64,000 bases of DNA, from NCBI GenBank assembly GCA_963734635.1, contig CAVTIA010000013.1, positions 14,649-78,648 of the forward strand, written 5' to 3'. Below the pieces are notes generated by a model. That model had not been told where the DNA came from. It saw only the letters and a list, made by a program, of their open reading frames with translations, and did no database searches. Made by a program: the position numbers and the translations under genes. Below, one piece after another: positions 654-6,229 of the stretch; the stretch's first letter is position 1, and every line of letters starts with the position of its first letter. Source of the stretch: an uncultured Acidobacteriota bacterium (GTDB lineage Bacteria; Acidobacteriota; Vicinamibacteria; Vicinamibacterales; UBA2999).

Positions 654-1580
654 TTACCGGGTGTCCGCATGATGATGCGCCCGATATCCATCGCGACTTT
701 GCACCCGCAGGTCCCTCTTGCCGGGAGCGCGCACGAGCACCTTCACGCGGCGGTAGGTACCGTCGTGCGCAGCATTGGAAGGGACATACCCGATCAAGTA
801 GCCGCGGCGGATGTTTCCGGCAATCCGGTCGAGGTCTTCGACGACTTCCCGATCACTGTCCGGGAAATACGCCATTCCGCCGGTCACGCGCGCGAGCCTG
901 CGAAGAAGCCCCGCGTCGCCACCGGCAGGGTCGCCGTAGCGGTCCGCGTTGGAGACCGTGTAGACCATCGTGTTGCTGGCTCGCGCGCGTTCGAGCATCA
1001 CGTCCTCTGAATTTGCGCTCGCGTTGTCTTCGCCGTCAGAGAGTACGACGAGCACGCGCTTCTGATTGCTCGCGGATTCGAGACGATTGAGCCCCGCGAT
1101 CACGGCGTCGTACAACGCTGTTCTGCCACCGGGTCGATACCGTGAGAGCGCCGCCTGGAGCAGCGTTCCGCGATCGGTGAACAGTGTTCCGCCGGGCAGT
1201 CCGAATTGAATGTGTTCGTTGAAATGAATCGTGAACAGCTCATCGTTTTCGTGGCTCGACCGCACGAACGCTGCGCCGCCGGCGATGAGCATGCCCTGAC
1301 GGGCGATCATCGAGCTGCTGTTATCCAGAATGAGCCCGACGGCCACCGGAACGTCAGCTCCGCTGAAGAACGTGATCTCCTGCGGCTGTTCATCCTCGAA
1401 TACGCTGAAGGCGCTCTGCGGCAGCTCGGGAACCGCGTCTGACCGTCCGTTGAACACATTCACGTGCAGGACGACCAGGTCGGATTCCGACCTGAAGACG
1501 TCCTGCGTGTTCTGTCCTGCGACGAGGGGCGCACAGCACAGCGCCGCGAACACGACGACACGCATCATTTGCTGCACCAT
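654..1580 (-). CDS. secreted von Willebrand factor type A (VWA) domain protein, acidobacterial VWFA-related type
   Basis: ORF of 308 aa. Signal peptide MMRVVVFAALCCAPLVAGQ. MIDAS motif LILDNSSSM, plus later VLVVLSDGEDN. No C-terminal sorting signal. Confidence 0.85.
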   Translation of the reverse strand: MVQQMMRVVVFAALCCAPLVAGQNTQDVFRSESDLVVLHVNVFNGRSDAVPELPQSAFSVFEDEQPQEITFFSGADVPVAVGLILDNSSSMIARQGMLIAGGAAFVRSSHENDELFTIHFNEHIQFGLPGGTLFTDRGTLLQAALSRYRPGGRTALYDAVIAGLNRLESASNQKRVLVVLSDGEDNASANSEDVMLERARASNTMVYTVSNADRYGDPAGGDAGLLRRLARVTGGMAYFPDSDREVVEDLDRIAGNIRRGYLIGYVPSNAAHDGTYRRVKVLVRAPGKRDLRVQSRDGYRAHHHADTR

Positions 1581-1792: not shown

Positions 1793-1963
1793 CTACTGTT
1801 TCGGCGTGCCCGGTTCGTCAACGGACCACCAGTACCCGCAGGCGGGACAGTGAAAGACCAGCGTATGCGGCAGCTTGTTCTCGATGAGGGCCACCGGGCG
1901 CTCGCACGCGGAGCAGATGAGGCCGGTGTGTCTCGGTGGTGTCAATGGTGCGGGGGGAACCAC
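1793..1963 (-). CDS. small zinc-ribbon protein (start uncertain)
   Basis: C-terminal part of ORF 1793..2248 reads ...GLICSACERPVALIENKLPHTLVFHCPACGYWWSVDEPGTPKQ (CxxC...CxxC). The upstream part of that ORF overlaps the + strand gene and looks like shadow. GTG at 1963 is one possible start. Confidence 0.3.
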   Translation of the reverse strand: MVPPAPLTPPRHTGLICSACERPVALIENKLPHTLVFHCPACGYWWSVDEPGTPKQ

Positions 1964-2086
1964 GCGGCCCTGAGAGGCAAGGCAGGTACCACGACAGAAG
2001 ATGCTCGTTCTCGCTGAAACCGAACAACGCCTGCCTTGGAAGACGCCCAGCGGGCAGACAAAGGTCGGGTATCCTAAGTACACACC

Positions 2087-2800
2087 ATGCTTCGACGTGC
2101 CGGCATCCTGGTGCTGGTCTTCTTGGTTTCTGAGGACCTTGCGACGGCAACGACGATCGTCATCATGCGTACGACGACGGGCTTCGTCGTTGGCGCGGAT
2201 AGTCTCGCACGGGTCGAGGAGATCAACGGGACGCTCCACGCTGCACACATCTGCAAAGTCGGATCACTCGGCCCGAATCAGTACGTCGCGGTCGCCGGCA
2301 TCCTCGAGTTTTTGCCCAGCGGCCTCGACACGTGGAGAATCATTGAAAAGATCGCTGCGAGAGGTGGGCTGCTCTCTGCCAAGGGAGCACAGATCGAGTC
2401 AGAGTTGCGTGGTCTTTTGGACGCGACCGCACCATGGTCCGCCGAGCCGGTAAAAATCGAGGTGGCACTCTTCGGCGTCGAGGCCGGCGAGCCGGTTCTT
2501 CTTCTGAATACTTACGAATCAAAGGTCGATGGCGCAGGGAAGATCGTGTCCAGAACCTCCACGCAACTTGTGTCGGACGAGGTACTGTTGTTCGGCGAGT
2601 CTACGGCTGCAGCGGTTTTTGCGAAATCACGCGGCCGCATCGACAAGGAGGACCCCGTTGCTGGTGTTCGCGAACTGATCCAGGCCCAAATCCAAGCGAC
2701 GCCCGATCGCGTGGGGCCACCGATCAATATCTTGAGAATCGACGCGGCTGGGTATACATGGGCAGAAGAAGGGCATGTATGTTCTACCCGATTGCCGTAG
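2087..2800 (+). CDS. proteasome/HslV-like Ntn-hydrolase homologue with hydrophobic N-terminal extension
   Basis: ORF of 237 aa. After MLRRAGILVLVFLVSEDLATA comes TTIVIMRTTTGFVVGADSLAR (compare HslV [21 protein letters not shown]). Then ICKVG...YVAVAG, ALFGVEAGEPVLLL, LLFGESTAAAVF and a C-terminal DRVGPPINILRID, in the same order as proteasome beta-fold motifs. Confidence 0.5.
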   Translation: MLRRAGILVLVFLVSEDLATATTIVIMRTTTGFVVGADSLARVEEINGTLHAAHICKVGSLGPNQYVAVAGILEFLPSGLDTWRIIEKIAARGGLLSAKGAQIESELRGLLDATAPWSAEPVKIEVALFGVEAGEPVLLLNTYESKVDGAGKIVSRTSTQLVSDEVLLFGESTAAAVFAKSRGRIDKEDPVAGVRELIQAQIQATPDRVGPPINILRIDAAGYTWAEEGHVCSTRLP

Positions 2801-2894: not shown

Positions 2895-2983
2895 GCCGGA
2901 GTGGTGAAACTGGCAGACGCGCCGGACTCAAAATCCGGTGGGGTTCACTCCCCGTGAGGGTTCAATTCCCTCCTCCGGCACCA
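2895..2983 (+). tRNA. tRNA-Leu (anticodon CAA), type II with long variable arm, CCA encoded
   Basis: Acceptor stem GCCGGAG/CTCCGGC. Anticodon loop CT-CAA-AA in GGACTCAAAATCC. Long variable arm GGTGGGGTTCACTCCCCGTG. T-arm AGGGTTCAATTCCCT. Discriminator A plus CCA. Confidence 0.9.
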
Positions 2984-3481: not shown

Positions 3482-4927
3482 TTACCGGGAGTGGTTGATT
3501 CCCGCAAGTCTCAGCCATTGTTCGGATTCGATGCGCCGGAGCACTCGGTCGGCGACCAGGCGGTGCCCTGCCGCGTTGTAGTGGTAGTGCAGACGAAATC
3601 GAAACAGCGACAGCGGATCATCGCGCATCGCGAACGCCGGATGGAGGTCGATGAGGGGAATGTTCCTATCTCTCACCATCTCCAATACGTGTGAGCGCTG
3701 CCGGCCCGCCACACCGAGATTCCCTCCGTCATAGCGCTCACGAGCCGGGAGGTAGACGAAGACCAGGGTGCCTCCCCATGAGCTCACCCGGTTGTTCACG
3801 TCATCGATGATGCGACGAAGCAACTCGATCAGCGAACGCTCGCGATCGGGTGGAGCGCCCCGTTCCTGACCGTCGGCACCATAGACCAGCCCCAAGGCTT
3901 CCCGCAACGAGGTCAGCTTCAGCGCTGTCAGCACCCTGCTTGGAGGTTCGTATGCCTCGCGTCTGGCACGGCTCTCGCGGTCGACCGCGAGCTGAAGGGC
4001 GAGGTACTGGTTCAGGACTTCCTCGACCTCGCCCTTCCGCTCGCGCAGATTCTGCGTAAAGCCCTCTTCCAGATAGCGCATCAGAACGGGGTGCTTCGTC
4101 TCGTACTCCAGCTCCCCGAGACTTCCCTCGGAATAGAACCACAGGACGACTCTCGGCTGCAGCCATGACAGGTATTCGGTTGTCACCGCCAGGATCCTGA
4201 GCGGTCCGTGGCCGGCCATGCCGAGGTTGAGCGTGGCCGGGTAGTGGCGGCGCACGAGCGCGACGTAGTTCTCGTTGGAGGGGACGCAGAACCCGTGAGT
4301 CCACGAGTTGCCGACCGCGGCGATGTCGACGCGTCCCCAGAGTCCGGGCGGATTGTGAAAGCCGTGCTCGTCGCTCTCGAACGTGCGCCACTCACCGGCG
4401 TCAATGCATGTGACCGTCGGTCGATATGGGAATCCACCCAGGGGCACTAACTGCGCACCCGCGGGTGCCGCGCTCGTCGACGCTCTGGCGGGGATTGGCG
4501 TTCCCACAAATTGAACCGCGTTGACGCCGGCCCTTCGAGCATCGGCCACCACCTGATCTGCGTCGCGCGTCTCGACGAACCCGCCGGGCGCGACACGGTC
4601 GAGTTTCTCAAGCCGGCTGGCGCGGTCGGATCCGCGTCCAGTGAGGACGACTTCGGTCCCGAACACGACGGTGATCAACGCCAGAGTGGTCACAGCGGCC
4701 GCAACCTTGTGAGTCGGTCGCAGCCGCAGCGCAGCAAAACACACACCCGCGAGAGCCGCAGGCACCCCGAAATACCAACCAATGCCCGCAGCACTCGTAA
4801 GGCGTCGTTGACCCGTCAATCCGTACTGATAGAAGAGATACAGGAGCGCGAGGACCGAGGCCATACCGCCGACGGCCAGGACTGCATTCGCCACGCGAGT
4901 ACAAAAGGTCAATCGTCGGGAGATCAT
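3482..4927 (-). CDS. membrane-anchored SGNH/GDSL-like hydrolase family protein
   Basis: ORF of 481 aa. N-terminal TM helices, DIAAVGNSWTHGF (block I-like), and C-terminal HYHYNAAGHRLVADRV (block V-like His). The assignment is motif-level only. Confidence 0.55.
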   Translation of the reverse strand: MISRRLTFCTRVANAVLAVGGMASVLALLYLFYQYGLTGQRRLTSAAGIGWYFGVPAALAGVCFAALRLRPTHKVAAAVTTLALITVVFGTEVVLTGRGSDRASRLEKLDRVAPGGFVETRDADQVVADARRAGVNAVQFVGTPIPARASTSAAPAGAQLVPLGGFPYRPTVTCIDAGEWRTFESDEHGFHNPPGLWGRVDIAAVGNSWTHGFCVPSNENYVALVRRHYPATLNLGMAGHGPLRILAVTTEYLSWLQPRVVLWFYSEGSLGELEYETKHPVLMRYLEEGFTQNLRERKGEVEEVLNQYLALQLAVDRESRARREAYEPPSRVLTALKLTSLREALGLVYGADGQERGAPPDRERSLIELLRRIIDDVNNRVSSWGGTLVFVYLPARERYDGGNLGVAGRQRSHVLEMVRDRNIPLIDLHPAFAMRDDPLSLFRFRLHYHYNAAGHRLVADRVLRRIESEQWLRLAGINHSR

Positions 4928-5261: not shown

Positions 5262-6229
5262 CCTGGTCGCTGGCCCTAATCCAGGAATTGGAGGGCGGCG
5301 CCTCCATTCGGTCTGGTTCAGCTAGGGTACCGCGATTAAGGCTCGCGCTTCGGCTCGCGACTGAGTGGGTCGAGTCTGTGTCAGCGCACTGTCTCTGGAC
5401 GCGGATATCCGCGCCTACTTTGACAGCATCGATCAGACGAAGCTGCTCAAGCTGGTAAGTCTGCGAGTCTCGGATCGGCGGGTGCTGAAGCTGCTGCGGC
5501 AGTGGCTCGCCGCGGGTGTGATGGAGGAGGGCCGGTGGGCTGGCACGCCGACGGGCACCCCGCAAGGCGGGGTGATCTCGCCGCTGCTGTCCAACATCTA
5601 CCTGCATGTCCTCGACCGGCTGTGGGAGGACCGGTGTGCGCACCTGGGCACGCTGGTCCGCTACGCTGACGATTTTGTGGTGATGTGTGCCACGAAAGCG
5701 GCGGTCGAGGAAGCCCGGCAGCGGGTGAGCGCCGTGCTCACGCGTCTCGGGCTCGAGCTGCAACCGGAGAAGACGAGGCTGGTCGATCTCTCGCGCGGTC
5801 GCGAGGGCTTCGATTTCCTCGGGTGTCATCTGCGCAAGCGATTCAGCGGGCCGCTGTGGGCACGGACGCATCGCCGCGTCTATTACCTGCAGCGCTGGCC
5901 GTCCGCGCGCGCGACGGCACGGGTGCGTGCTCGCGTACGGGAGCTGACGCCTCGCCGGTGCCACGAGGAGCTCCGCAGCGTCATTGCGGACCTCAATCGG
6001 GTACTGCGGGGGTGGGGGCGTACTTTCGTACGGGCAATGCGGCGATCAAATTCGTCCAGATCGACCGCTTGTCGTGGAGCGCTTGCGCGCCTCGCTGATC
6101 AAACGGCATGGCGCGCGGCTGCGCCCCGGCCGTGTCGAGGCGTGGCATCGTCCCTTCTTCGAGGCCTTAGGACTCTGCCGGCTTAACGGAACGATTCAGT
6201 ATCCGGGGACAGCACAATGCCGCACTTAA
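5262..6229 (+). pseudogene. group II intron reverse transcriptase/maturase, N-terminally degraded and multiply frameshifted
   Basis: [31 protein letters not shown] and [10 protein letters not shown] (YADD) lie in ORF 5365..6186. The maturase tail is split: LRGWG (frame 1), [17 protein letters not shown] (ORF 5685..6098), [18 protein letters not shown]...LNGTIQYPG (ORF 5984..6229). Upstream remnants IRSGSAR...ATEWV are in yet another frame with stops. Confidence 0.8.

Follow-up and report, generated by a model that had tools for sequence, protein, structure and literature searches.

Can an enzyme of the proteasome type be exported from a bacterium and have its catalytic threonine uncovered by signal peptidase? 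The question is raised by an open reading frame (ORF) at positions 2087..2800 of a 64,000-nucleotide stretch of DNA (the window; assembly GCA_963734635.1, contig CAVTIA010000013.1, positions 14,649 to 78,648 of the forward strand) from an uncultured Acidobacteriota bacterium of the lineage Vicinamibacterales, UBA2999. A first-pass annotation made from the letters alone had described the product as a proteasome/HslV-like N-terminal nucleophile (Ntn) hydrolase whose predicted signal peptide ends directly before the catalytic Thr. In the accounts that we found, proteasome-type proteolysis is cytoplasmic or nuclear, its nucleophile becomes free through autolysis or through loss of the initiator Met, and it is usually coupled to an ATP-dependent unfoldase. 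Profile searches, structure prediction and a comparison of relatives lead us to regard the product as probably an exported proteasome-fold Ntn hydrolase that is cut by signal peptidase I exactly between residues 21 and 22.

The ORF and its N-terminus read exactly as had been described. It opens with an ATG, which is the first start codon past the upstream stop, with no in-frame start further upstream, and it encodes a 237-aa precursor whose N-terminus is MLRRAGILVLVFLVSEDLATA-TTIVIMRTTTGFVVGADSLAR and whose mature part begins TTIVIM. No ATG, GTG or TTG lies beside the Thr22 codon, and a signal-less form in which Met directly precedes the two Thr residues is therefore impossible from the window gene. 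For the family comparison, 188 collected relatives were aligned to a family hidden Markov model, and residue counts are given per 189 members. The features of the gene are as follows, with an arrow marking the bond before Thr1 or a predicted cut here and below:

2087..2800 (+): hydrolase gene, 237-aa precursor of a predicted exported proteasome-like Ntn (Thr) hydrolase (ORF, homologues, AlphaFold2, Foldseek)
2087..2149 (+): predicted Sec-type signal peptide, aa 1-21, with a predicted signal peptidase I site Ala-Thr-Ala21↓Thr22 (sequence, AlphaFold2, family pattern)
2150..2152 (+): codon of Thr22, the predicted Thr1 nucleophile (Thr 171/189, Ser 8/189), on residue 1 of mature BPH/HslV
2198..2200 (+): codon of Asp38 in the GADS motif, the Asp17 equivalent (Asp 187/189; invariant in the broader alignment A2)
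2252..2257 (+): codons of Cys56 and Lys57; Lys57 (Lys 187/189) corresponds to Lys33 of BPH/HslV, and Cys56 (Cys 185/189) is one of two near-invariant Cys
2297..2299 (+): codon of Gly71 in VAVAG (Gly 172/189), probable equivalent of the oxyanion-hole Gly47, on the Gly of A-I-T-G / G-L-A-G in BPH
2711..2725 (+): family-specific VGPPI motif, aa 209-213, ahead of the last beta-hairpin (V 174, G 171, P 135, P 184, I 150 of 189)
2780..2782 (+): codon of Cys232, the second near-invariant Cys (Cys 168/189, 19 gaps), kept in signal-less members

Searched as a single sequence, the window protein had no significant match in Pfam, NCBIfam or the PDB sequences; homology was resolved only by family profiles and structure prediction. 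The NCBIfam models and PDB sequences returned no match to this query at all, and the Pfam Proteasome model (PF00227) matched it weakly though in register (E 0.17; aa 20-72 on positions 3-53 of the profile), with a score of 11.9 bits that lies under the 22.4-bit gathering threshold. Two alignments were used as the basis of profiles. The first comprised 42 close or moderate homologues from a word-indexed search, and A21, T22, I24, V25, R28, G36-A37-D38-S39, C56-K57, G62, G71, G170, V209-G-P-P-I213, W225 and C232 are invariant in it. Its profile matches the BPH structures 5ovs/5ovu with an E-value of 0.0097, placing the family Thr on BPH Thr1 and K57 on Lys33. The second and broader alignment, A2, holds 74 sequences and was too diverse to serve as a query for scanning loci. 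Its profile matched 96 PDB sequences at E<=1, the best 60 of which are all proteasome-family chains; E-values were 3e-5 for BPH, ~6e-4 for HslV and 3e-3 for beta6, and the Thr position again falls on residue 1 of the mature BPH/HslV chains. A direct comparison with E. coli HslV by hhalign (E 3.8e-4) likewise puts Thr22 on Thr1 and Lys57 on Lys33. PF00227 was weakly matched by 35 of the 74 A2 members (best E 1.8e-5), and no other Pfam family recurred among them.

Structure prediction agrees with the profiles. The AlphaFold2 (AF2) model reached a mean predicted local distance difference test score (pLDDT) of 75.9 with the small alignment, and a pLDDT of 90.4 with a predicted template modelling score of 0.86 with the broad one. 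When the two models were compared with the PDB by Foldseek, the matches listed (the best 50 for the broad-alignment model) contained only 20S beta subunits, with best E-values of 4.3e-9 and 5.8e-10 and template modelling scores of ~0.5-0.66. Because the profile and structure matches are in register with Thr1, Asp17 and Lys33, the fold and active site first claimed for this protein are confirmed, and it is almost certainly an Ntn hydrolase of proteasome fold whose Thr1/Asp17/Lys33 centre is intact. The absence of any Ntn or proteasome-fold match had been named as grounds for abandoning the assignment; profile, hhalign and AF2 plus Foldseek comparisons all match that fold, with Thr22 on Thr1. 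By fold and active site the window protein is a member of the superfamily, but one that lies outside the curated Pfam family PF00227.

The proteasome catalytic set as defined in PMC4792962 includes Thr1, Asp17, Lys33 and Gly47. With Thr22 as residue 1, Asp38 is residue 17 of the predicted mature chain, and the proteasome-beta-like blocks picked out earlier map as proposed, ICK57 onto Lys33 and VAVAG71 onto Gly47, with G170 a conserved Gly (182/189). The Ser18 equivalent is kept in 185/189 members and Trp225 in 183/189, and the VGPPI motif served as a search pattern for relatives. An extra CxxxC/CxxxxC pair occurs in ~110/189 members, in a beta-hairpin loop at the window-equivalent positions 156/157 and 161 (e.g., DDCLADC, SCPGNCP); the window protein is without this pair, which leaves it a total of two Cys where most members have four. 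An export-specific disulfide between Cys56 and Cys232 was considered and dropped, both Cys being kept in signal-less members.

Directly upstream of this centre, every element of the signal that the first-pass annotation had pointed out is present in the sequence: an n-region MLRR, an h-region AGILVLVFLV of ~10 residues and a c-region SEDLATA with Ala at both -3 and -1, directly before Thr. As judged by heuristic only, the window protein thus has what is expected of a substrate of Sec and signal peptidase I, i.e., a basic n-region, a hydrophobic core of 7-15 residues, a polar c-region and small residues at -3 and -1. Residues 1-20 are without secondary structure in both AF2 models (pLDDT <50 in one, ~58-60 in the other), and the first beta-strand begins at aa 23 in both. 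A cytoplasmic propeptide or transmembrane anchor had been named as the finding that would overturn the proposal; by our home-made heuristic, the AF2 models and the family comparison, the N-terminus instead looks like a cleavable Sec signal. As such, the window protein is very probably exported by way of such a signal. Two other routes were considered and rejected. For Tat export, which calls for the twin-arginine motif [ST]-R-R-x-F-L-K in a long signal of weak hydrophobicity, the window protein reads L-R-R-A-G-I-L within a 21-aa strongly hydrophobic signal, and the motif was found in 0/124 family members in its strict form and 10/124 in its loose form. For a lipoprotein signal, inspection found no lipobox Cys at the junction.

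The family provides a more informative view of the junction. When 1.84 billion cluster representatives were searched exhaustively with HMMER, 3,121 relatives (50%-identity clusters) scored E<=1e-3, of which 1,819 were at <=1e-10 and 177 at <=1e-30, and nearly all of the best 150 of these 3,121 are 218-370 aa long. With so many relatives, this is a large family of its own. Its members are without Pfam annotation and labelled "hypothetical protein", except for one relative automatically named "HslVU peptidase subunit" by JGI; in PHROGs, the only related match was a weak one, of one relative to "peptidase HslV family" (E 0.012). Named carriers are metagenome-assembled genomes of Acidobacteriota (Pyrinomonadaceae, Blastocatellia), Nitrospirota and Desulfobacterota (Nitrospiraceae, Thermodesulfovibrionales and Desulfobacteraceae), all of them diderm lineages, and a second word-indexed protein search added few further named members. 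The metagenome contigs that carry relatives appear to be mostly soil-derived. No relatives were found in the viral contigs searched, and PADLOC gave no link to a defence system.

We assigned the N-termini of 145 non-redundant representatives to classes with a home-made heuristic based on the hydrophobic core and the c-region. In the largest class (72/145), hereafter the direct class, the hydrophobic core lies <=9 residues from Thr1. Position -1 in this class is Ala in 62 and Gly in 8, position -3 is small or aliphatic (Ala in 36, then S/L/V/T/G), and position -2 is unconstrained; judged by its residues, this is the classical pattern of a predicted signal peptidase I site sitting on Thr1. In 17/145 the site is offset by one residue, with the junction [A, G or S]-Q↓T, and a further offset subgroup has A-x-A-N↓T or A-x-A-E↓T. 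A third class (33/145) has a spacer: ~23 of its members show a canonical site of the A-x-A↓Q type followed by a spacer of 6-11 residues that ends in Gly (23), often as His-Gly (9), as in ...APA↓QDSWHG↓T and ...TVA↓QGILHG↓T. No hydrophobic segment at all is present in 18/145, which begin M↓T or carry short leaders ending in (H)G↓T, with Gly at -1 in 12 of the 18. One of these signal-less members, P0082, was verified on its contig, where an in-frame stop 25 codons upstream leaves no hidden signal. In the remaining 5/145 a hydrophobic segment abuts Thr1 with non-canonical residues at -1 and -3. Across the family, then, the N-termini are hypervariable in sequence but conserved in character, keeping the n-h-c layout.

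The offset class includes P0046, P0051, P0085, P0188 and P0212-P0219. Its combination of A-x-A with a single Gln, Asn or Glu recalls the Q-rule of Bacteroidetes (PMC5837995), a tentative reading given the N and E variants.

The residue at -1 is what distinguishes these layouts. In the spacer-class and signal-less relatives taken together, Gly stands at -1 in 35 and His-Gly precedes Thr1 in 13; Ala:Gly at -1 is 62:8 where the signal abuts Thr1 versus 5:35 in the spacer and signal-less members (Fisher p=8.8e-16). The arrangement His(-2)-Gly(-1)↓Thr1 is the junction of the eukaryotic beta5 subunit, in which Gly(-1) positions the scissile bond for autolysis (PMC4792962). That the -1 residue tracks the layout is as expected if two different enzymes make the cut, signal peptidase I after Ala and autolysis after Gly. 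This switch between Ala and Gly is the strongest evidence here for a Thr1 that would be generated by signal peptidase. Together with the -3/-1 rule it supports the earlier suggestion that signal peptidase I could be the maker of the nucleophile, and as far as sequence comparison can tell, this interpretation is supported in that every computational test applied bears it out.

The closest competing account accepts export but has Thr1 exposed by autolysis, either after signal peptidase has cut further upstream (e.g., after Ser15) or with the N-terminus acting as an anchor until the folded domain cleaves Ala21-Thr22. Some of the family speaks for it and, by the same token, weighs against a role for signal peptidase in making Thr1: the required catalytic residues are all present, (H)G↓T junctions persist in ~23 spacer-class and 12 signal-less members, autolysis at an Ala(-1) junction is possible in principle, and the offset members (at least 17), in which one extra residue precedes Thr1, need more than signal peptidase, i.e., a second step. 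For the direct class, to which the window protein belongs by its layout, the account fits poorly, since the Ala-x-Ala before Thr1 is a canonical signal peptidase I site that dominates exactly where there is no spacer, and since the Gly that would position the scissile bond for autolysis has there been swapped for Ala. In the window protein itself, a cut at the upstream site L-V-S↓E would reduce the c-region to a single residue, and for a stable membrane anchor the hydrophobic core, at ~10 residues, is short. We consider autolytic exposure of Thr1 after export improbable. Still less probable, and in our estimate a marginal explanation, is that the protein is a cytoplasmic homologue with a hydrophobic propeptide whose resemblance to a signal is a coincidence. 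The characterised bacterial homologues are treated as cytoplasmic (PMC5777263, PMC5666114, PMC8665760), some members of this family are truly signal-less, meaning that the fold works without export in some lineages, and the conserved Cys pair is no evidence of export because those same members keep both residues. Against this, the n-h-c layout and the -3/-1 rule recur in most of the 145 divergent representatives despite unrelated N-terminal sequences, the N-terminal segment lies outside the fold in the AF2 models, and the spacer class has its own AxA↓Q site ahead of an (H)G↓T propeptide, an order that is sensible only if the hydrophobic part is a removable signal. An even number of Cys in the mature chain of 145/178 members points the same way, though it is only suggestive and we do not count it as evidence for export.

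Independent of where Thr1 comes from is what it acts on. The exported protein might be no general protease but a specific amidase, a transferase, a ligase (cf. connectase) or a silent binding protein, which we regard as possible though on the unlikely side. A monomeric ligase belongs to the superfamily, as do many proteins whose activity is unknown (PMC8665760), and the equivalents of 20S Ser129/Asp166/Ser169 are not clearly conserved, the positions after Gly170 varying (S/H/T/N) and VGPPI standing in place of the D-x-x-S-G-G region; the family has invariant features of its own instead, namely Ser18, Cys56, VGPPI, Trp225 and Cys232. That the Ser129/Asp166-type residues are not clearly conserved counts against a general protease, but the conservation of Thr1, Asp17, Lys33 and Gly47 matches that of active proteases. 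This alternative moreover concerns the substrate only and is compatible with export and maturation by signal peptidase.

Taking cleavage by signal peptidase I as the preferred reading, the following sequence of events can be proposed. The 21-residue N-terminus would act as a Sec signal peptide that targets the precursor, which would then cross the inner membrane of a diderm (Acidobacteriota-type) bacterium. After translocation, signal peptidase I would cut A-T-A↓T, and this same single cut would both free the protein and create the free alpha-amino group of Thr1 (Thr22). The hydroxyl and alpha-amine of Thr1, together with Asp17 (Asp38), Lys33 (Lys57) and the Gly47-like Gly71, would then form the centre of a threonine amidase/peptidase. 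In such a scheme the signal peptide may double as a propeptide, keeping the nucleophile blocked and the enzyme inert as long as it stays in the cytoplasm, and activation would fall to the general secretion machinery instead of autolysis or Met removal. We infer export, the exact cleavage site, hydrolase activity and independence from ATP, the last of these because ATP is absent outside the cytoplasm and the comparison of loci turned up no ATPase partner.

How far, then, does this protein depart from the proteasome homologues already described? Its closest known relative by profile is BPH (PDB 5ovs/5ovt/5ovu; E 3e-5 as above), with the N-terminal ~50 residues in register, including Thr1, the Asp17 of GxD and Lys33. 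Like the window gene, BPH stands alone as one gene that has neither an ATPase partner nor a long propeptide (PMC5777263). Unlike it, BPH has no N-terminal extension, with no propeptide or signal described (PMC5777263), and the match is limited to those first ~50 residues; the present family is set apart by a predicted Sec-type signal, by Cys56/Cys232, by its VGPPI and Trp225 motifs and by a mature chain that runs to ~215 aa and includes C-terminal strands. HslV (ClpQ) shares the mature N-terminus TTIV(x)(x)R...G(A)D with Thr1 and Lys33 in register. In contrast to the system known for HslV, no HslU was found near any of 98 loci examined, no NCBIfam HslV model matched, and the profile match (E ~6e-4) extends over ~80 residues; HslV also has its Thr1 exposed in the cytoplasm, whereas export is predicted here.

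The 20S beta subunits (PF00227/MEROPS T1) have in common with the window protein the alpha-beta-beta-alpha Ntn fold and Thr1, Asp17, Lys33 and Gly47, and the short His-Gly↓Thr propeptide of some relatives resembles that of eukaryotic beta5 (PMC4792962). They differ in that an alpha subunit is lacking here, no Ser129/Asp166/Ser169 signature can be recognised, and a predicted signal peptide with Ala, not Gly, at -1 replaces the propeptide. Unlike the bacterial 20S subunit PrcB, the gene has no paired alpha gene in the 64-kb window and no Pup/Mpa-type context, as no neighbours are conserved. Anbu differs in being encoded in an operon with transglutaminase, ATP-grasp and Alpha-E genes (PMC5666114) that are not in the window, and no Anbu structures were among the best 60 of the 96 A2-profile PDB matches. 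The window protein is thus not HslV, BPH, Anbu or a 20S subunit.

Fuchs, Alva & Lupas described 22 new proteasome-homologue groups in 2021 (PMC8665760), which resemble the present family in being divergent, stand-alone prokaryotic proteins with no AAA+ partners and no informative gene context. None of the 22 is assigned to Acidobacteria or Nitrospirae in their table, a comparison made by description only. In that work propeptides are given only for proteasome beta subunits and HslV, and signal peptides or export are never mentioned (PMC8665760). The BPH and Anbu papers have the Thr or Ser exposed without propeptides, with Met removal for Anbu (PMC5777263, PMC5666114), and HslV, BPH, Anbu and 20S are all treated as cytoplasmic in this literature. 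A full-text search for periplasmic, secreted or exported proteasome homologues, in which not all journals were covered, found no report of one, and export goes unmentioned in a 2026 review of proteasome plasticity. Within that coverage, the earlier remark that an exported proteasome homologue would be new holds.

Export of Ntn enzymes as such has precedents. Penicillin G acylase, PvdQ and other N-acyl homoserine lactone acylases carry a signal peptide and do their work in the periplasm (PMC5474475). These acylases are members of another Ntn family, whose sequences show no detectable relationship to the one described here, and their nucleophile is exposed by autoproteolysis of an internal linker. 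In Gram-negative penicillin V acylases, Cys1 is exposed by removal of the signal peptide; these would be the nearest mechanistic precedent. What is new here is therefore the compartment and the activation route for an enzyme of the proteasome type, the fold, the chemistry and the export of Ntn hydrolases already being known.

Turning to the genes around the hydrolase, the following neighbours were identified in the window:

654..1580 (-): signal-peptide-bearing (secreted-type) VWA protein (Acidobacteria-specific model TIGR03436, E 9.5e-49), the window's best pointer to the phylum Acidobacteriota
1793..1963 (-): zinc-ribbon ORF of ~50-56 aa, CxxC...CxxC (translation; weak Zn_ribbon matches, E 7e-4)
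2895..2983: tRNA-Leu(CAA)
3482..4927 (-): SGNH/GDSL hydrolase
5365..6186 (+): truncated group II intron reverse transcriptase/maturase (RVT_1 E 3e-23, GIIM 6e-5; second half of RVT_1 only, profile 71-205)
Elsewhere in the window: DUF218, CDP-alcohol phosphatidyltransferase and PQQ dehydrogenase genes

As the first-pass annotation had noted, there is no partner ATPase and no Anbu-type neighbour in the window, and no second proteasome-like ORF was found in its 64 kb. The comparison of loci extends this finding. Loci were compared first in a set of 22 and then in a set of 98 that represents 23 lineages (<60% identity). No family of neighbours is shared by more than 3 of the lineages, and neither an ATPase nor a conserved partner was found. 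A Ser/Thr-kinase/beta-propeller neighbour was considered as a partner and rejected as coincidental, being present in only 3 lineages. The hydrolase gene stands alone.

The zinc-ribbon ORF had been described as convergent to the hydrolase gene and partly overlapping its 5' end. The orientation was incorrect: the ORF lies upstream on the opposite strand, so the two genes are divergent. Its conserved part ends at 1793 and its probable start is a GTG at 1963 or a TTG at 1945; with such a start it need not overlap the hydrolase gene, the overlapping 151-aa frame being merely the maximal stop-free frame. It is conserved only in the closest relatives, L005/L006, with 43/45 aa conserved and 5 synonymous versus 3 non-synonymous codon changes. 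It is absent from the other lineages and was not called by gene callers on L005. This ORF counts as a neighbour, with no demonstrable part in the system.

Some lineages show arrangements of their own. In one Pyrinomonadaceae-type subfamily, and confined to it, a convergent operon of CP_ATPgrasp_2, PilZ, a 177-aa protein and GCS2 (carboxylate-amine ligase) ends beside the hydrolase gene (L002 8843-12309, L007 4148-7660, L008/L010); Anbu is likewise accompanied by amidoligase genes. At L007 2577-3116 (+), and also at L003 1-528 and L009 2-541, a co-directional gene lies 36 bp ahead of the hydrolase gene; its 179-aa product bears a signal peptide of its own (...SAIPAAA↓QTPYP), matches no Pfam family and could be a lineage-specific secreted partner or substrate. 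A close relative, P0224 (121 aa, on a 282,654-bp ENA contig, corresponding to window positions 2087-~2450), is frameshifted after ~residue 93 and past that point follows the frame that in the window belongs to the alternative ORF 2001..2453; it is either a pseudogene or an assembly error.

Taken as a whole, there is roughly an even chance that these proteins constitute an overlooked large family of extracytoplasmic proteasome-type Thr hydrolases in diderm soil and sediment bacteria, working with neither ATP nor an unfoldase, in half of which a Sec signal and signal peptidase I have replaced propeptide and autolysis, so that the family would record the rewiring of a zymogen. If this is true, the proteasome family would gain a new compartment together with a new activation route, the creation of Thr1 by signal peptidase I, and the intermediate layouts (a signal plus a short HG↓T propeptide, and the signal-less form) would trace the passage from an autocatalytic zymogen to an enzyme activated by the machinery of its host. 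Should the mature protein also form rings, it would be the first extracytoplasmic self-compartmentalising protease of the proteasome-like kind. The mixed maturation layouts within one family offer a comparative system for the role of the propeptide and of Gly(-1), and proteasome inhibitors and activity-based probes would be directly usable for finding substrates. For Acidobacteriota, Nitrospirota and their relatives, groups that are abundant in soil and poorly understood, the finding points to an uncharacterised hydrolase that may act outside the cytoplasm.

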